From positions 832,001-896,000 of the forward strand of contig CAWIGG010000004.1 of NCBI GenBank assembly GCA_963835575.1: a stretch of 64,000 nt of DNA. Direction: 5' to 3'. This document shows, in pieces, positions 20,282 through 64,000 of the stretch. Every line of letters begins with the position of its first letter. Position 1 is the first letter of the stretch. The notes under the pieces were generated by a model. That model saw only the letters and a list, made by a program, of their open reading frames with translations, ran no database searches and was not told the origin of the DNA. Source of the DNA: an uncultured Spirochaetota bacterium. GTDB lineage: Bacteria > Spirochaetota > Brevinematia > Brevinematales > JAOACQ01. Position numbers and translations under genes: made by a program.

Positions 20282-20367
20282 TGCCGGGGGCGGGACTCGA
20301 ACCCGCACAGGCGTTAAATCCCGAGGGATTTTAAGTCCCTTGTGTCTACCAATTCCACCACCTCGGC
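20282..20367 (-). tRNA. tRNA-Leu(TAA)
   Basis: GCCGAGGTGGTGGAATTGGTAGACACAAGGGAC-TTAAAA-TCCC, long variable arm, GGTTCGAGTCCC; CCA not encoded. Confidence 0.96.
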
Positions 20368-20384
20368 ACACATATATAAAAACG

Positions 20385-20457
20385 AGGGGATGGTCGGAAT
20401 TGAACCGACGAATAGCGGTTTTGCAGACCGCCGCCTTAGCCACTTGGCTACATCCCC
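20385..20457 (-). tRNA. tRNA-Cys(GCA)
   Basis: GGGGATGTAGCCAAGTGGCTAAGGCGGCGGTC-TGCAAA-ACCGC...GGTTCAATTCCGACCATCCCCT. Confidence 0.96.
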
Positions 20458-28795: not shown

Positions 28796-28991
28796 ACACT
28801 CCTTTTTTTACTATCTTGATATGATTTTCGGTAGAATTAAAAAAAGGTTAATAAGAATGAAGAAATAAAAATAAATATTTGATGATTGACATAAGCCGTT
28901 AAGATGACCCCGATGTGGCAGGATAACCTGGAATTTGAAGGATAATATTATTGGGGAATTTCACTGGAGGTGGGAAGGGGAACGGGGGTTG

Positions 28992-29086
28992 GCCACAGAA
29001 TTTCACGGAAAAACACAGAATTTATAAGATAAAATAAAGGTTTTATTAATATTTTATTTCCGTGAATTTCTGTGTAATTCCGTGGC
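28992..29086. repeat. Inverted pair of 3x10-bp CAC(A/G)GAA repeats
   Basis: GCCACAGAATTTCACGGAAAAACACAGAAT ... TTTCCGTGAATTTCTGTGTAATTCCGTGGC, about 35 bp AT spacer. Confidence 0.85.
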
Positions 29087-29166
29087 AGACTTCTTTTTTT
29101 TTAAGCATGACAGTTCAATAGGGACTCTATAATTAAGTCCCGCGGCTTTAAAATCAAGAGATTATG

Positions 29167-30654: not shown

Positions 30655-30977
30655 TTTGCTTCTCCTGCATAAATATAAACCGGACAATAAATGATTTGAA
30701 TTTAATATTACTGACAGGTTATATTTAATATGAACCGGATTATTCTACCGTCAGGACAAAAAAAACGCAAAATGTCATAAACAGGAAATCAGGAAAAAGC
30801 TGCTATTTCCGTGTATTTCTGTGTATTTCTGTGAACTTCCGTGGCAGACTTCGCGTCACTTCGGTATTGCTCAATACATAGCTTCCAGTCTTCCTGTGAA
30901 ATTCTATTCTGAGGATCCTGATAAATCCTGTTAATCCCGATTAATTGGGGTCTGATCAATAAAGCATTTGGTAATAA

Positions 30978-32277: not shown

Positions 32278-32373
32278 AAATATCCTTGTCTTAGAATCAA
32301 GATAATTGTAAGAAGCTACCCCAAGAGTCCCTTTTCTACTATCAGCAGTGTCTCAAAGAATACCAATAATTCT

Positions 32374-32500
32374 TTGTGTCCATTCGCGTGGATTAACGGA
32401 TTGATTGGTCTTCCGCTAAGCCACACGAAGACACGCTAATGAGAATTTATTTTCAAATTATTCAATTTCCTTCGCGTCTATTCGCGTGTATTAGCGGATT
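32374..32500. repeat. Inverted (CGCGAA/CGCTAA)n repeat cluster
   Basis: TCCGCTAAGCCACACGAAGACACGCTAA vs TTCGCGTCTATTCGCGTGTATTAGCGGA, plus an extra copy at about 32374-32400. Confidence 0.7.
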
Positions 32501-32529
32501 ATCCGTCCTTATACCGGTTTTAAGCACCG

Positions 32530-36571: not shown

Positions 36572-36751
36572 TTGGAATAAAATGTTACAGGAAGTAAGGA
36601 AGCCGGGAAGAAATTAATAGTTAAGGATAAAAGTTGGAAGATTGTCTTATATTAATAATCCAGATTCTTAATTAATATATGAATGCTTGGAAATTTAATT
36701 GAGATACTTGTTTTTAGCGACCTTCCCGCCTTCCAGTCTTCCTGTAAAATT
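36572..36751. repeat. Inverted (GGAAG)3 repeat pair around ~105 bp AT-rich spacer
   Basis: TTGGAATAAAATGTTACAGGAAGTAAGGAAGCCGGGAAG ... CTTCCCGCCTTCCAGTCTTCCTGTAAAATT; same motif at about 51509-51550 and 30881-30903. Confidence 0.75.
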
Positions 36752-36773
36752 AAAGATTTGAAGAGGAGTCCGT

Positions 36774-38263: not shown

Positions 38264-38271
38264 TCATATAT

Positions 38272-38406
38272 AAGGGAAGAGCAGGTTTTCAAACCGGGCC
38301 TCCTTGAGAGGCAGTAGAAATAAAGAGCTTTTCTACAGGACTTCCTTCAATTTAAAATGTTATGAATTGGAGCGGTCACAGGTTGTGAAAGTTGTTGTTC
38401 CCTTTT
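38272..38406 (+). ncRNA. Candidate structured RNA (sRNA or 5' leader), family not recognised
   Basis: Long 5'/3' closing stem enclosing three hairpins; begins at the predicted TSS and ends in a U run. Confidence 0.5.
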
Positions 38407-51468: not shown

Positions 51469-52052
51469 GACCCCAATTCGGCAGGATCAGCAGGATTTGT
51501 CAGGATTCTTGGAATAAAATTTCACAGGAAGACGGGAAGGCACGAAGGGAAATTAACGTCACTTTATTTTTAATTGGAAATGTTCATCATAATTTCTTTG
51601 TGGTAATATCCGATGGTGCACACGGATGATGCAGGTAATGTGGATTTGCACGGATCTTGGGATTGGGTACGACTGAGGTAACCACAGATTTCACAGATTA
51701 CATAGACAGGGAGCGAGGAATCGGAGGAAATTGTTTTGGAGTTGCGCACTGTGAACAAGGTATAGCCTCCTCCTAAAATCCCTATTCACAAATGTCCTAT
51801 ATCATATCCGGCTTCGAATAAAACTTTACAGGCATCGTTAAGTAATACTAAATCCTATAAATCCGCCTTCATCCATGCAATCTGTGTGAAATGGGGTCGC
51901 TCATTAAGCTTTAATAAAACAAAAAGGACATCTCAATCAAAATCTCTCATCTACCGGGCGTAGCCCCCGATTTCAGTCCTTTCCGTGAAATTCTGTGGTA
52001 GACTTCGCGTTTTCCTGTATAATTCTAAAAAAAATCCTGATTTATTGGGGTC
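51469..52052. mobile_element. ~585-bp non-coding element with GACCCCAAT...ATTGGGGTC ends and nested repeat modules
   Basis: Left 72 bp match the reverse complement of 30881-30952 at 59/72 (hand alignment); inner module 51608-51898 matches the kinase flanks. Confidence 0.6.
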
Positions 52053-53671: not shown

Positions 53672-53788
53672 AAAAACCTCCATCGATTAGATTATTTAAA
53701 TTATAATTCCAGAAACTGTTTGCGTCAAGGCGGTACAACATTTGTTTCTATGCGTTAGAGGCCGGGTAAAATAACAATGCTATTGATT

Positions 53789-53832
53789 TAAGGGCAGTTC
53801 CAAAAACTTTAAGGTTTTTGGAACTGCCCTTA
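53789..53832. repeat. 19-bp perfect inverted repeat
   Basis: TAAGGGCAGTTCCAAAAAC-6 nt-GTTTTTGGAACTGCCCTTA. Confidence 0.85.
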
Positions 53833-53961
53833 TAATAATTATTGCTAAAAAACGAATAATTTATTATAATATCCAGTTAGAGTTCATTGTCCCATAGAAG
53901 ATTAGATCAATATTCACATCACTTAAAAATCACTGCATTTCTCTAATCCGAGGAGGAAAAC

Positions 53962-54450
53962 ATGTTTGAAAAGAAAGAAGCGGCTGTTCACCTGACCGAA
54001 AAACTCATCGCCTTTATTGATAAATGGAAACATGTGGAAGGCAGTTTGATCATGATCCTGCACAGCGTTCAGGAAGAATACGGCTATATACCGCGTGAAG
54101 TCGCCCTTCAGCTGTCCAGGATGCTGAACGTCCCCCTGGCGAAAATATACGGGGTTATCACGTTCTATCATTTCTTCAAGCTTAAAAAGCCCGGCAAATA
54201 TAATATAGCCGTCTGCATGGGGACGGCCTGCTACTTAAAAGGCGGAGAGGACATCCTGAACGAGCTGGAAACGCACCTCGGGATCGGCGTGGGCGGCATT
54301 ACGGAGGACAGTCTCTTCTCACTGGAAGCTGTACGGTGCGTCGGCTGCTGCGGCCTTTCCCCTGTGCTGACGATCAATAACGAAGTATTCGGGCGGCTGA
54401 CAAAAAAGGGAATACCGGAAATCCTCTCAAAATTCAAGAGTAAGGTATAA
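53962..54450 (+). CDS. [FeFe]-hydrogenase NuoE-like subunit (HydC/HndA)
   Basis: VCMGTACYLKG, VRCVGCCGLSP. Confidence 0.92.
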   Translation: MFEKKEAAVHLTEKLIAFIDKWKHVEGSLIMILHSVQEEYGYIPREVALQLSRMLNVPLAKIYGVITFYHFFKLKKPGKYNIAVCMGTACYLKGGEDILNELETHLGIGVGGITEDSLFSLEAVRCVGCCGLSPVLTINNEVFGRLTKKGIPEILSKFKSKV

Positions 54451-58719: not shown

Positions 58720-59484
58720 ATGTTCGAATCCGTAAAATCAAGGATCAGCCATGGTTTTCCATACATTCCGAATATCCGGAAAGCGGGTGTGGACGAAAAA
58801 TTCCGCGGTCTTCCATCATTAAAGAAAAATGTCTGTAAAGACTGCTCATCGTGCGTCGAGGTTTGCCCGACCGGGGCCATCTCGCTTAAATCGTTCAGGA
58901 TAGACATCGGCAAGTGCATCTTCTGCGGCGACTGTGAGAGGGAGTGTTCAAAAGGCGCTGTAAATTTTACACCATTTCATAAAACGGCAGCCTCATCGCG
59001 GGAAGCCCTTATCGTTTCGGAAGGGGATTCTTCCGCCGATTTCGAGAAGAAGGCAATACAGATAGACGAAAAGATACGAAGTATCTTCGGAAGGTCGCTG
59101 AAGCTCCGGCAGGTCTCGGCCGGCGGATGCAGCGCCTGCGAGATGGAGCTCGGCGCCTGCTCGAACGTCAATTTCGACATGGGGCGCTTCGGCATCGAGT
59201 TTACCGCCTCCCCCCGCCATGCGGACGGGATCGTCATAACCGGGCCTGTAACATTTAATATGGCTGAAGCCCTGGAAGACGCCCTGAGCGCAGTGCCGGA
59301 ACCGAAGCTCATCATCGCCGTGGGAAGCTGCGCGATCAGCGGCGGGATTTTTCAGGACTCGCCGGCGATGAAGAGGGATTTTTTCGAGAAGCATAAAGTG
59401 GATTTGTATGTGCCGGGATGTCCCATCCATCCTTTGACGTTTATCAACGGACTGCTGGATTTTACAAGGGGCAAAAGGGATTAG
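58720..59484 (+). CDS. Fused 2x[4Fe-4S] ferredoxin + NuoB/HycG-like subunit
   Basis: CKDCSSCVEVCP, CIFCGDCEREC; AGGCSACE, SPRHADG, AVGSCAISGG, VPGCP. Confidence 0.88.
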   Translation: MFESVKSRISHGFPYIPNIRKAGVDEKFRGLPSLKKNVCKDCSSCVEVCPTGAISLKSFRIDIGKCIFCGDCERECSKGAVNFTPFHKTAASSREALIVSEGDSSADFEKKAIQIDEKIRSIFGRSLKLRQVSAGGCSACEMELGACSNVNFDMGRFGIEFTASPRHADGIVITGPVTFNMAEALEDALSAVPEPKLIIAVGSCAISGGIFQDSPAMKRDFFEKHKVDLYVPGCPIHPLTFINGLLDFTRGKRD

Positions 59485-59689
59485 CCACGAGGCACGGAGG
59501 ATGGGCTACGCCTGACAGATAAAAGCTCTATACTATGAATTCCTTTCTGTTTTATTAAAAATCATGATTCAATCCCAATTTCACACAGATTGCACGGATG
59601 AGGCGGATTGACGCGGATTATCTGTAGTAACTTATGTTTTGGCTTTTTCTAAAAAAACACTTTTTCAACAATCTCGTAAAGCGGCGAAA

Positions 59690-61216
59690 TTACGCTAAAA
59701 GTAGACGTAACCACTTCTCTATTTCAGCATTTTCAAGTTTTTTCGTTTCTACTTCTCGTACATGCATAGCAACTCTAGAGAGATTATATTCATTATAGAA
59801 TTCGTTACTATCCAAAGCGTAATTTTCTTTATGCGGTCCACGAACTAAAGCAGAATCTTTAAATATAGCAAAATACCATTCTCCATAAATATCATCTTGC
59901 TTTTCTTTCCTTAAAATCAAATTCACGGAATATTCGTTCTTTGTACCACTTAAATTCATCACCCCAACCAAAATTATCAGTTCTTTATCGAAAATTATAC
60001 CTTCAGGTTCTTGCATAACCATTCCATATTTTTGTTTCTGAAATTCTATAGATCTTCTTCTTCGTTCATCTTTATAATTAGCAATCCCATTCACATCAAA
60101 AAATGATATATCTAATGCTCGTTCCATAAAAGATACTCTTAGACTTTCTAAATTATTTCTTTTCCCATTTTTTATGATGAATTTTGCATTTTCTAAGTTT
60201 TTGTTCACAGACTCAACTAGAGAACATACAGAATTAATCAATTCATTGATAGAATAATTTAAATATCGCAACTTCTCCTCATGTTCATCTTGTCTCTTTG
60301 AGCTTTTTGCCAATTCCTCTTCTTTTTTTCTAATAAGCTGATGAGCCATACTAGCAATCGACGTAGCTATATTCGCGTCTTTTGTATTACTTTTAAGAAA
60401 ATCGTTAAGACTCTTAAGTATTTCTTCATCATTTTTATATCGCTGGTCCTTTTTTTTATTTGACATCTTTATGATTATTTCTTTTAATTTTATAGGAACA
60501 TCGCTTCTATTTGTACTTAAATCCGGTAACGGTTCAAATAGATGACACTGTCTATAATCTTGTGGTGTTGCACAAATATAGGGTTTCTTAAGTGTTAAGA
60601 TTTCAAAGAACATTATCCCCATTGAATAAATGTCCATTGAAATCGTATTTGCTTCTCCAAGCCATGCTTCAGGAGACATATAAGCATAAGTCCCTGCACC
60701 TTTAAAAGAGAATGTTTTTGTTGATTCATCTACATATTTTGACATTCCAAAATCGCAAACCTTAGCTGTGCCATCCACATCAATTAATATATTATTCGGC
60801 TTCAAGTCTCTATGTATCACTTTTTTATGAGCATATTCCAATCCTTTCAATATATCTGTAAAAATACTATAGCATTTATCCAAAGGCAACATAACCTTCT
60901 GCGTTTTTAGAAATGCATCTAGGCTGCCATTAGGCATATATTTCATTACCAAATAAAAATAATCACCCGCATCACTTTCTCCAGAATAGTAAGTACTTAT
61001 TATATTAGCATGTGCTAGTGTGGCGGATATATCTATTTCTCTTTTTAAGGTTTGTCTATATTGCTCATCAAAGATAGGGGCAATTTTTATTGCCACTTTC
61101 GTTTTATTTATTAAATCATCAGATAGATAGACGTCGCCAAATCCACCTGCATTAATTTTTGTACCAAGCTCATACTGTTCACTGCTTTCAGGACCTCGTA
61201 ATTTATTCATGACCAC
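59690..61216 (-). CDS. Hanks-type Ser/Thr protein kinase with unknown C-terminal domain, AT-rich
   Basis: GGFGDVY, VAIK, HRDLKPNN, DFG, GTYAYMSPE, DIYSMG; no TM segment. Confidence 0.93.
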   Translation of the reverse strand: MVMNKLRGPESSEQYELGTKINAGGFGDVYLSDDLINKTKVAIKIAPIFDEQYRQTLKREIDISATLAHANIISTYYSGESDAGDYFYLVMKYMPNGSLDAFLKTQKVMLPLDKCYSIFTDILKGLEYAHKKVIHRDLKPNNILIDVDGTAKVCDFGMSKYVDESTKTFSFKGAGTYAYMSPEAWLGEANTISMDIYSMGIMFFEILTLKKPYICATPQDYRQCHLFEPLPDLSTNRSDVPIKLKEIIIKMSNKKKDQRYKNDEEILKSLNDFLKSNTKDANIATSIASMAHQLIRKKEEELAKSSKRQDEHEEKLRYLNYSINELINSVCSLVESVNKNLENAKFIIKNGKRNNLESLRVSFMERALDISFFDVNGIANYKDERRRRSIEFQKQKYGMVMQEPEGIIFDKELIILVGVMNLSGTKNEYSVNLILRKEKQDDIYGEWYFAIFKDSALVRGPHKENYALDSNEFYNEYNLSRVAMHVREVETKKLENAEIEKWLRLLLA

Positions 61217-61295
61217 TTTTACTCCCTCATATGAAATTTGTATTACGTCTTACTTCATATAAGCAAATTTAATATATGTGAATTTTCTCCCCTTC

Positions 61296-61324
61296 ATCTT
61301 AATAAAGCCCAATTCACCTGTCAA
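61296..61324 (-). promoter_or_regulatory. sigma70 promoter for the kinase
   Basis: TTGACA-17 nt-TAAGAT just inside the repeat end. Confidence 0.6.
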
Positions 61325-61521
61325 GACCGATATCGGGACGCAATAATCTGATCCGTGAAAATCCGCATCATCCGCCTAATCCGCGTGCCGAATCGGATCA
61401 GTACAATAAGGCGGCAATTATTATAGAATTACAATAGCTTAACAAAGGCATTGAAATGAAATAATTCTCTGTGCCCCTGTGTCTCGATAGCGAATTCTCT
61501 GTGGCGGTTTATCCTGTAATT

Positions 61522-62178
61522 CTATTTATCCTTCCATAGTGTCTCGCCCTTTATGAGCCATGAAACGCCGAAAGCCCATAGAGTGAATGATTCCAGAATC
61601 AAATCGGGTTTGATAATTGAAATTATTGAAGTCTTTAAAAAGAATTCATATATTCCAATCAAGATTATAGAAATGACTATTATGATACCGCAGGCTCTAT
61701 ATATTCTATTTCTCACTATTTTTTGACCGGTCATTATTTTGGCGTTGCTTTTTGTAAACAGGAAGAAGGATATAAAAGCCAGTATCCCGAAGAATAAGCC
61801 GGCGCATATAAAATGAATTACCCCGGAAATATGATCGCTGATCTGAAATGTCCCGACTATTACGGCCTGATCACTTCCTGTAAATGTCGGAAACAGAGTC
61901 ACTCCAAGAGCGCAGGCCCCGCAGATTGTCGCTATAATATCGTCAAAATTACCGTAACCTTTGTAAGAGATTAAAAACAGGGCCAATCCGCATGTAATGC
62001 CGATAAAAACATCCCTCAAATTCGTATAATAATAACTGCTGATCGATTCCTGGATCGCTTTTCCCGCGATCAAACCGCCGATGAATAAAATAAACGGCAG
62101 GATAATCCCTAAAATACCGAGAATCCGGCGCATTGTTAAATACGATATTGTCAGACAATTGCTCTTTGGAACAGGCAT
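61522..62178 (-). CDS. DUF998-like membrane protein
   Basis: SISSYYYT, LFPT, IHFICA, FGVSWLIKG. Confidence 0.75.
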   Translation of the reverse strand: MPVPKSNCLTISYLTMRRILGILGIILPFILFIGGLIAGKAIQESISSYYYTNLRDVFIGITCGLALFLISYKGYGNFDDIIATICGACALGVTLFPTFTGSDQAVIVGTFQISDHISGVIHFICAGLFFGILAFISFFLFTKSNAKIMTGQKIVRNRIYRACGIIIVISIILIGIYEFFLKTSIISIIKPDLILESFTLWAFGVSWLIKGETLWKDK

Positions 62179-62315
62179 TGTTTCCTCCTTAAAGTTTTAG
62201 GTATTACTTCTGATATAATGCAAATTACAGAAATTTAGAGATTGCCGGGCGATTTTGCCAAAAGTGTACTCGCCGCAGCCGGCAACTTGATTTTAGACGT
62301 TGTAAAGAAAAAGTG

Positions 62316-62780
62316 TTATTCAACAACATTAAATCCCAATTTTGCATATAATTTCATCGCCGGTTCATTCCCTTCGAGTATTTTTAATGTAACTTCCATA
62401 CTTCCTTTTGAAAGTATTTCATTAACTGCATATTTTGTTAATTTTGAGCCATAACCTTTTCGCTGAAATTTCCTATCAATACTGAGAGATTGAATATAAT
62501 TATTAAGAAATAGTATAGACCCTATTAAATAATTGCCTATATCAAAGAGGAAATAAAATGTATCCTTATTTTTATTAAAAAATGATTTTATCTCACTTAA
62601 TTCTGATTCGGATGATTCGTTTATCCTGTGAGGAGTTATATTGTTTTTTCCCCGTAATTCGTAAAATAAGTCTGATTCCAAATCAAGTTCCATTTTAAAA
62701 TAATCATCACAATATTTTACCGGATTAATTTCCGGATCTTCATATATGGGTCCTTTATAAACTAATTTTAATTCATTCAT
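62316..62780 (-). CDS. GNAT family N-acetyltransferase, AT-rich
   Basis: FQRKGYGSKL, NEPAMKLYAKLGF. Confidence 0.88.
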   Translation of the reverse strand: MNELKLVYKGPIYEDPEINPVKYCDDYFKMELDLESDLFYELRGKNNITPHRINESSESELSEIKSFFNKNKDTFYFLFDIGNYLIGSILFLNNYIQSLSIDRKFQRKGYGSKLTKYAVNEILSKGSMEVTLKILEGNEPAMKLYAKLGFNVVE

Positions 62781-62794
62781 TTGTCAGCCGCTTT

Positions 62795-63133
62795 TCAGAG
62801 GGCGTCTTCCCCGGTCTGGCCCGTCCTGATGCGGATGGCTTCCTCAATAGTGCTGATAAATATCTTCCCGTCGCCATGCTGGCCGGAATGGCAGATCGTC
62901 CGTATTTTTTCCACGATCTTTTCAACAAGCGCCTCGCCGGTGACTATTTCCAGCTTGGTTTTCGGGACCAGCGAAACATCGCCCTCGGCGAACTCGATGA
63001 TGCTCTGGTGCCCGCGCTGGTGGCCGAAGCCTCCTGCCTCGATAACGGTAATTCCCTGGACCCCCAGGTCTGAAAGGGCCTTCTGGATTTCAGCCAGTTT
63101 GGAACGGCGGATAATCACCTCTATTTTCTTCAT
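62795..63133 (-). CDS. glnB: P-II family nitrogen regulator
   Basis: MKKIEVIIR, GFGHQRG, PKTKLE, GDGKIF, IRIRTG; ATG at 63133. Confidence 0.9.
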   Translation of the reverse strand: MKKIEVIIRRSKLAEIQKALSDLGVQGITVIEAGGFGHQRGHQSIIEFAEGDVSLVPKTKLEIVTGEALVEKIVEKIRTICHSGQHGDGKIFISTIEEAIRIRTGQTGEDAL

Positions 63134-63436
63134 GAAGGGGCCTCCTGAACTGTCAATTATAAAAAATATAACCATATCTTACTGATGATATAAAAAAATT
63201 ACAATAAAATAAAAAATGCCGTATTTCCCGCGAAGATTTTCAATACAAAATTTCAACGGGATATTATTTCACAGTCATATTATTTCAATTTATATTTCTG
63301 ATCCGGAAAACTTTCAGATAAAACTGAAAATATTTCATTCAGGCCCCCATCCTTAATACGTAATGTTTGATTTTTCCGCCGTTCCGTGCTAAAATTTTGA
63401 ATTAGTTTTTTAGAGGGGCAGGTCATAGAGTAGAGT

Positions 63437-64000
63437 ATGGATCTGAAATTAAAAGATGTCTGCGGCCTTCTGGGCGTCGAAGAAAAAAAGCTTGTCGGCT
63501 GGATTAAAGAGAATAAAATACCGGCTTATGAAATCCAGCATCAATATTTTTTCAACAAAGCCGAAATTCACGAGTGGATCCTTAAAAACAACTGGCCGGT
63601 CTCAAAAAGCGCGCTGGACCTGGCTTTGACGAACGAGCCGGTCTCGCTCGTTTCCCTTCTGGACAAAGGCGGGATTTTTTATCAAATCCCGGGCAGGGAT
63701 GCCAGGTCGGTTATAAAGAATTCCGTAAAAAACATTCCTCTCCCGCCCGGACAGACCCAGGATACGGTTATTTCGACGCTGCTGGAAAGGGAGGAGATGA
63801 TGCCGACGGCGGTCGGTAAGGGGATTGCCATTCCCCATCCGCGGAACCCGATCGTTTCCGATATTGAAAACGAGAGCGTGTCCCTCTGCTTTTTAAAAAA
63901 TAAAATAGATTTCGGGGCGCTGGACGGACTGCCTATAACGGCGCTCTTTATTGTCCTCAGCGCGAATGCCAGAAGGCACCTGGAGATTTTATCTAAAATA
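63437..64000 (+). CDS. HTH (excisionase-like) + PTS EIIA(Ntr)-like protein, runs off window
   Basis: Not in ORF track; MDLKLKDVCGLLGV..WIKENKIPAY; LEREEMMPTAVGKGIAIPHPRNP. Confidence 0.88.
   Translation, partial: MDLKLKDVCGLLGVEEKKLVGWIKENKIPAYEIQHQYFFNKAEIHEWILKNNWPVSKSALDLALTNEPVSLVSLLDKGGIFYQIPGRDARSVIKNSVKNIPLPPGQTQDTVISTLLEREEMMPTAVGKGIAIPHPRNPIVSDIENESVSLCFLKNKIDFGALDGLPITALFIVLSANARRHLEILSKI

Follow-up and report, generated by a model that had tools for sequence, protein, structure and literature searches.

Could foreign genes be gathered at many places on a bacterial chromosome without an integrase? In pdif modules and in composite transposons bounded by MITEs (miniature inverted-repeat transposable elements), inverted sites lie around accessory genes, and integron cassettes have attC sites, a Pc promoter and an integrase gene with attI beside the array. 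In the available text of two reports, the repetitive extragenic palindromic (REP) units of REPIN-RAYT systems form hundreds of intergenic inverted doublets, mostly past gene 3' ends, tied to a small repeat-flanked enzyme gene, the REP-associated tyrosine transposase or RAYT (PMC8049555, PMC3733652). In the Neisseria intergenic mosaic elements (NIME), the short conserved sites of dRS3/RS arrays alternate with spacer families of 50-150 bp; in the portion available, the authors proposed that a specific recombinase mediates exchange or insertion of array-flanked genes, and they termed the arrays Neisseria-specific (PMC1797815). The function of PF13366 (GxxExxY or PDDEXK_3, TIGR04256) is listed as 'Unknown' in the part of PMC3424549 available. 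Here, we analyze a stretch of 64,000 nucleotides, called the window, from an uncultured Spirochaetota bacterium (contig CAWIGG010000004.1, positions 832,001 to 896,000), in which two modules of short facing repeats, one around a Ser/Thr kinase gene (59484-61508) and one empty (51474-52052), represent a repeat family dispersed over the whole genome (G000, 94% complete).

An initial annotation of the window, made from the letters alone, had named the ends of both modules X and Y and proposed that they are polar and that their cargo is interchangeable. Below, core denotes one copy of the X/Y repeat, and arm denotes any phased array of such units, X/Y or of a sister type. Our tentative reading, towards which we lean, is that X/Y copies facing inward bracket foreign genes at host gene junctions, and that a GxxExxY nuclease acting in trans opens these slots for capture. 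Among systems that combine repeats with an enzyme, it is probably a variant that captures cargo.

As far as REPIN-RAYT is described in the text cited, the arms resemble it in forming dispersed intergenic inverted doublets, mostly past 3' ends, in a lineage-specific burst. They differ in being phased tandem words rather than palindromes, in doublets that enclose kilobases of foreign genes, and in a partner that is a PD-(D/E)XK nuclease in several copies instead of a single HUH transposase. The GTAG/CGTC tag of REP units lies near only 10 of 109 X/Y heads, and a search of the genome for a repeat-flanked RAYT (Y1 HUH) gave two weak partial PF01797 matches, one of them in a 1208-aa frame; the genes that are flanked belong to PF13366. 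The alternation with spacer families is shared with NIME. However, judging from the same portion of its description, dRS3 is palindromic and 20 bp long, and the arms are not of the dRS3 kind, although no search aimed at dRS3 was made; NIME vary resident surface genes, whereas the direction-bearing arms here split around foreign defence-like genes. As in integrons, the platform would supply a promoter to single genes of promoterless type, and the cargo pools overlap, given a kinase relative in another genome (G279) that lies beside an attC-like hairpin. Unlike in integrons, the sites are inverted, not direct, and the slots are dispersed instead of forming one array. No attC-like site follows any of 39 cargo genes, the kinase included, by a rule that does detect the site after the G279 relative; the best TIGR02249 match in the genome scores 127 bits against a cut-off of 265, and its gene lies 21.8 kb from the nearest X/Y core. 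Compared with pdif modules and MITE composites, no dif-like site, terminal inverted repeat pair or target-site duplication is found at the arms. An Xer/pdif reading of one head type (type A, below) was rejected: it leaves a 7-bp centre and unlike arms, and the other two types differ further from dif. The single dif-like site on G000 C2, probably the dif site of the genome, lies at an offset of about 901339 on the minus strand. As for the GxxExxY family, X/Y cores flank such a gene in one metagenome contig (L104) and sister arms do so at all 10 loci here; unlike in these cassettes proper, the X/Y arms of this genome carry other cargo. The literature searched, which leaves subscription papers and bioRxiv supplements outside its coverage, holds no description of repeats flanking GxxExxY genes.

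X and Y are two subtypes of a single repeat family. A profile search found 109 copies in the genome and none in a reversed decoy, with a unit of about 60 bp made of a head and then four CACGGAT-like units at a period of 9-10 bp. The head is of type A (TAATATCCGATT) in 63 copies, B (GACCCCAATT, corresponding to Y) in 33, C (CTGATCCGATT) in 10 and unclear in 3; the X of the initial annotation thus combines types A and C. The reported alignments were reproduced: X (51608-51656) matches the reverse complement of 61350-61398 at 38/49 positions ungapped, and the Y motif matches at 23/24, with 34/48 across the whole of Y and homology reaching 109 bp at 75% (51860-51966 versus 59503-59609). The opposite orientation of the two modules is likewise real. 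What does not hold is that X and Y are distinct ends, since one profile detects both and their identity is 59-66% against a family median of 71%, or that the two modules have the same end pair: their X copies differ in subtype and are 73% alike, ranking 17 and 20 among 108 partners, and their Y copies are 78% alike, with ranks 21 and 15. Spacer families are recombined across head types. Taken singly, cores show no more folding than shuffled sequences do (z -0.4 to -1.3); for two empty X doublets the fold z is -7.2 and -3.0. With a strict A/C-head pattern, we found five genome records and eight metagenome stretches, several of them chance matches inside genes. A GC-rich motif of 20-25 bp (CTTCGGC..GCTCAGCAC type) occupies an identical position inside several X/Y cores, such as those at G000 C2:1037536, C2:1087843, C5:244939 and C2:307202.

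The kinase module directly adjoins a hydrogenase small-subunit-like host gene (58720..59484, plus strand), whose stop codon abuts an outer arm of CACGGAG/CACAGAG-unit type, shortened to two units (59484..59499, plus; identified by eye, under the profile threshold). There follow, on the plus strand, a shared spacer (59503..59569) with the GGGCTACGCC motif and about 55 bp more, which precedes several Y-type cores, and a core of head type B (59570..59625) with a CCCAATT head and four CACGGAT-like units. The cargo, as initially described, is a kinase gene of 1.5 kb (59690..61216, minus), which encodes 508 aa with intact catalytic motifs; its GC content is 32%, compared with 53% in the adjoining host gene, and its GC content at third codon positions (GC3) is 0.24. 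Behind it, all on the minus strand, are a promoter-like site directed into the cargo (61296..61324), a core of head type C (61342..61406) with a CTGATCCGATT head and four units, and an outer arm of CACAGAG-unit type (61467..61508; by eye), the counterpart of the arm at 59484, so that the weaker outer pair reported around the kinase is indeed present. Three genes outside the arms (61522..63175, minus) encode a membrane protein, a GNAT protein and a P-II protein. Of the promoter claimed just inside X, the TTGACA-17-TAAGAT site itself is found (61324-61296), but the motif alone is not above chance (6 sites against 9.3 expected); its support is conservation among copies of this end subtype, six of them core-linked, and a motif search gave eight copies, six of which lie ahead of a sense gene. 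The X of the empty module has no such motif.

The empty module begins 18 bp past the stop codon of an ABC permease gene with outer arms of CAGGAT and then CAGGAAG type (51474..51549, plus), followed by a core of head type A (51598..51661, plus). On the other side, all on the minus strand, are the inner spacer of the Y end (51763..51839), belonging to a spacer family with 19 copies aligned, a core of head type B (51840..51898), and a right outer part (51899..52052) comprising the shared spacer with GGGCTACGCC, a CACAGAA-type arm (51976-52004) and, at its far end, decayed CAGGAA- and CAGGAT-type arms seen by eye. The initial annotation had taken the roughly 200 bp between X and Y for debris. Rather than leftover cargo, they are almost entirely further repeat modules, including a CACAGAT-type arm (51677..51707, plus): of the 194 bp between the cores, 51659-51724 and 51763-51850 recur in the genome (76% and 81%), and only about 38 bp (51725..51762) have no second copy. 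The possibility that this centre is a GxxExxY remnant was rejected, because a blastx hint (E 0.008) is countered by a profile score of -1.1 (rank 1596) and a DNA alignment no better than shuffles. The module is two facing mosaics that enclose nothing, that is, an empty slot. No Rfam family was found at either module, and neither contains a GxxExxY gene. More doublets or mosaics of sister-type arms lie elsewhere in the window, at 28987-29091, 30815-30947, 32371-32503 and 36722-36752.

When the whole genome was searched by a general scan for words, 460 arms turned up in intergenic DNA, versus 8-17 in controls; nine profiles detected 692 arms, belonging to nine types, and none in decoys. In 199/320 cases an outer head is no more than 60 bp from the 3' end of a gene, compared with 48/222 for 5' ends. 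The arms stand just past the stop codons of host genes, with their heads pointing out and their tails in, and what is inside is nothing, a GxxExxY gene or AT-rich foreign DNA. Among 206 facing pairs less than 10 kb apart, 160 are empty and 44 hold genes. Low-GC genes occur in 32 of the 44 (five being GxxExxY genes) compared with 6 of 117 outward pairs, and foreign cargo is present in 27/39 inward versus 6/117 outward pairs (p 2e-15). At least one X/Y core is present in 23 of the 27 foreign-cargo units, and X/Y arms make up 36 of 54 cargo flanks (67%) compared with 104 of 542 arm runs (19%). The end types match across 137 of the 160 empty pairs, and 130 simple facing doublets are nearly all type-matched, whereas outer end types match across only 10 of the 27 cargo pairs (6.6 expected, p 0.07). 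The interchangeability of cargo is supported, in that the foreign genes differ among the 27 facing arm pairs that have them and 160 pairs are empty.

The strict polarity that had been proposed fares differently. The 22 facing pairs of X/Y cores less than 10 kb apart are 11 X-X, 7 X-Y, 3 Y-Y and 1 unclear, not a fixed X-to-Y pairing, and the 7 X-Y pairs compare with a shuffled mean of 9.4, that is, pairing is random by type. Nor is cargo always in sense from X to Y: among five X-Y pairs that hold genes, three read X-to-Y and two Y-to-X. Consequently, X-to-Y polarity is refuted, and a narrower polarity survives, consisting of the promoter-bearing end subtype and of an orientation with the head to the host and the tail to the cargo. 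Flanks less than 1 kb apart face inward in 10/10 cases, and at 1-5 kb 8/16 are inward and 3 outward; 44 of 103 flanks have a facing X/Y partner within 10 kb and 59 have none. GC3 is lower in the tail-side than in the head-side gene at 80 of 109 copies, and values under 0.30 occur in 34% of tail-side versus 2% of head-side genes (p 2e-10). Partner cores within pairs are no more alike than random ones (72% versus 71%).

To characterize the cargo, 58 open reading frames (ORFs) were taken from 20 loci picked for low GC; 53 of the ORFs were compared with Pfam and 42, including the kinase, with PADLOC. They include type IIG/ISP restriction-modification genes, methylases, GmrSD, toxin-antitoxin genes, Panacea, IrrE-DUF4411, PIN, a cyclase, an AAA ATPase, a second kinase and insertion sequence (IS) elements. 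PADLOC matched 17 of the 42 ORFs, many via shared domains only; 23 of the 53 have no Pfam family, and one cargo protein of 183 aa has no relative among 400 genomes. The kinase is a member of a family of 500-520 aa, with 29 full-length relatives at 33-43%, one of them from Desulfobacter, among the best 150 matches. Its sole relative in 400 genomes of the phylum, the one in G279, is full-length (34% over 480 aa) and has no arms. A folded attC-like site comes after it, and upstream there is another, recognised by eye only. The PADLOC matches of the kinase (PD-T4-6, mad6) cover the kinase domain only, and its best value in an Atlas search is 0.77; no match to the kinase module was found in the plasmids or phages searched. 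From its context, the kinase probably has an anti-phage role.

The arms probably originated as the ends of cassettes that carry a GxxExxY nuclease gene. A GxxExxY gene (TIGR04256) of L104 lies immediately between a C-type and an A-like core that face inward; this arrangement is present as two tandem copies, and 40 bp from the end of the host gene recur on either side. The L104 protein has no relative in viral contigs. At all 10 GxxExxY loci of the genome, arms lie within 700 bp, of five sister types and none X/Y, and three of the loci are broken. Inward units stand on both sides of 25 of 51 GxxExxY loci, compared with 7 in the outward control; the arms of this genome likewise are arrays of a 7-base word that face inward and have a period of 9-10 bp. 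The unit word clusters on the GxxExxY protein tree (19 changes versus 30.4 shuffled), where kin share labels, which is no proof of co-evolution. A structure model (predicted local distance difference test score 93) has the PD-(D/E)XK fold with an invariant E, an E-x-K and a near-invariant D; the Foldseek list is headed by Cas4 and Hjc resolvases, and a sequence search found no solved relative.

Arms and cargo are lacking at the kinase junction, where the initial annotation had suggested looking for an empty site, in 2 of 4 relatives of the same genus, and at the other window junction in 3 of 4. In G001 and G004, the hydrogenase orthologue is followed after 3 and 75 bp, respectively, by the orthologue of a PTS-IIA-like gene at 63437, so that the three genes beyond the kinase module are also absent from this junction; in G002, G006 and G008 it has other neighbours. 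At the other junction, 126-147 bp without arms separate the ABC permease gene from the orthologue of the gene at 53962 in G001, G003 and G004; in G002, about 3.2 kb of other DNA come next. Compared with the 2.4 Mb of G004 covered (67% of that genome), in which no X/Y core and 15 arms occur against 460 arms in 4.39 Mb here, at least 500 bp are extra in our genome at 18 of 24 syntenic X/Y junctions (19 after correction of a tile artefact) versus 90 of 825 armless ones; synteny is kept at 24/73 X/Y and 825/1076 armless junctions. At the G004 junctions orthologous to G000 C2:306958 and C2:613984, repeats with a 7-bp period stand in place of arms, each junction hosting different repeat families in the two genomes. 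Two related genomes of another family share one orthologous junction (L041 and L067, flanks 71% and 78% alike), which in one contains a core plus two foreign genes, together with an assembly gap, and in the other only a 1.1-kb repeat mosaic. Tail-side AT-rich genes are likewise found at five loci outside the genus (L041, L044, L078, L080 and L009). One DNA run lists eight short contigs that match the window identically; two of them cross the ends and none joins across either module. The run possibly comes from the source sample and rare variants are dropped from its contigs, which are therefore uninformative on excision.

How could arms of this kind collect cargo? The 9-10-bp-phased units would be putative binding sites of the nuclease, which, acting in trans, may cut between facing arms, possibly extruded as a cruciform. 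Repair from incoming DNA, with arm homology on one or both sides as an anchor, would replace the centre and yield unlike left and right ends and nested mosaics, and the promoter end would drive promoterless cassette-type genes such as the kinase. In its full form, in which a GxxExxY nuclease recognises the phased arms, cuts between them and lets foreign defence genes, former integron cassettes among them, be installed behind an arm-borne promoter in dozens of slots without any integrase, the proposal is possible but doubtful. Several observations weigh against our main reading. Binding or cutting of the arms by the nuclease is a prediction from its fold and catalytic residues, and no cargo was seen to have moved directly from one slot to another. 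No GxxExxY gene lies between X/Y arms in this genome, the nearest being 5.2 kb off, and the direct link of X/Y to such a gene is one contig, L104, whose protein has as its two closest tree neighbours ones that share the unit word only; 26 of the 51 GxxExxY loci fail the both-sides test, and in a structure search no family stands out (best Z 8.3). IS elements aside, no cargo gene is present in two slots as a unit bounded by arms. Facing arms are lacking at all 12 relatives of one cargo gene and at the kinase relative, and at some core-bearing loci of the other genomes (L007, L067, L072, L073 and L076) the tail side is free of foreign genes. In addition, the DNA missing from relatives reaches beyond the arms at both window junctions and includes genes, and at a median protein identity of 67% the relatives are distant, so that absence could be loss.

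Part of this evidence would suit arms that are leftovers of GxxExxY cassettes and now serve as passive, NIME-like anchors for RecA-type recombination, with no dedicated enzyme, which we regard as a possible though less probable explanation. It would accommodate the unlike, mosaic ends across cargo, the recombined spacers, the lack of a cognate nuclease gene for X/Y in the genome, the missing target-site duplications and the few slots that hold 83-96% copies of a host gene or 3' end. However, RecA-type recombination would have to work with 55 bp at about 71% identity, which is short for it; duplication of host 3' ends is not general (2/55 versus 4/600 in one set of controls and 3/700 in another), and neither the first entry of cargo between arms nor the share of X/Y, 19% of runs yet 67% of cargo flanks, is explained. 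The short length and divergence of the arms, together with their tie to the GxxExxY family, lead us to favour the nuclease. If the arm-cargo-arm unit instead moved whole into gene junctions as a non-autonomous, MITE-bounded composite transposon, inverted ends and empty sites in relatives would follow, and the matched outer arms of the kinase module and two similar empty C-A doublets would fit. This is improbable, given that no target-site duplication was found at 40 junctions (mean longest repeat 6.4 versus 6.1 for random pairs, maximum 9), that the ends are unmatched in 17 of 27 cargo units with partner cores no more alike than random, and that no cargo unit is present in two places. Matched empty pairs, unmatched cargo pairs, the lack of target-site duplication and cargo relatives without facing arms are together more easily reconciled with capture between arms already resident than with units that transpose whole.

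Equally improbable is an earlier arrival of the foreign genes by other routes, with the repeats gathering beside them later at insertion-tolerant places, in spite of the 104 of 131 AT-rich genes (GC3 under 0.25) outside any inward pair, the 90 large insertions without arms and the IS elements that also accumulate in cargo. Later gathering predicts whole doublets beside cargo in either orientation, whereas halves are split around the cargo, with a strong excess of inward over outward cargo pairs and a conserved promoter directed inward. Finally, X and Y might be the left and right sites at which a site-specific (Xer/pdif- or integron-like) system sets the direction of cargo. In L104 and three units here, a C-type core does face an A-type one with little or one sense gene between; an arm-bounded insert directly follows the stop codon of both Xer-like genes, and most promoter-motif copies (6/8) precede a sense gene. 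Against this stand the random pairing and direction of X/Y, with only the C-to-A polarity of the parent cassette surviving, heads unlike the likely dif site, the want of attC-like sites after cargo genes and the lack of any integron integrase above cut-off, which make such a system very unlikely.

Some further observations concern the islands and the window. At G000 C5:56020-66541, C4:909955-913297, L104 and L067, arm-bounded islands carry repeats (83-96%) of host gene 3' ends or of an entire rlmL-like gene, as after repeated integration. The arm-bounded foreign inserts at both XerC/XerD-like housekeeping genes (G000 C2:1244954-1250847 and C4:112495-115075) lie at or within 16 bp of the stop codon, which may be chance. 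At G000 C2:38823-47745, a tyrosine recombinase gene adjoins a run of small AT-rich genes without arms, and a gene block of about 13 kb is duplicated with 82-100% protein identity (C2:1615390-1628380 versus C5:255972-267543). The window also contains a near-perfect palindrome of 58 bp (53782-53839), unrelated to X/Y, with 109 blast pieces on both strands and roughly 55 genome copies, a NiCo riboswitch match barely above the gathering score (38267-38345), tRNAs (20282-20457), and a direct repeat of 227 bp at 79% (1-227 and 1282-1508, spacing 1281).

If the arms are passive, they would represent a NIME-like system outside Neisseria, undescribed in the literature searched and less surprising. If a GxxExxY nuclease does open the slots, a widespread nuclease family of unknown function would gain a DNA target and a testable job, and dispersed defence hotspots could arise without an integrase or a transposase. 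Given their restriction-modification, toxin-antitoxin, cyclase and kinase neighbours, the cargo genes without a Pfam family and the kinase family are candidate anti-phage genes, and the slots may be usable as a tool for the discovery of defence genes.
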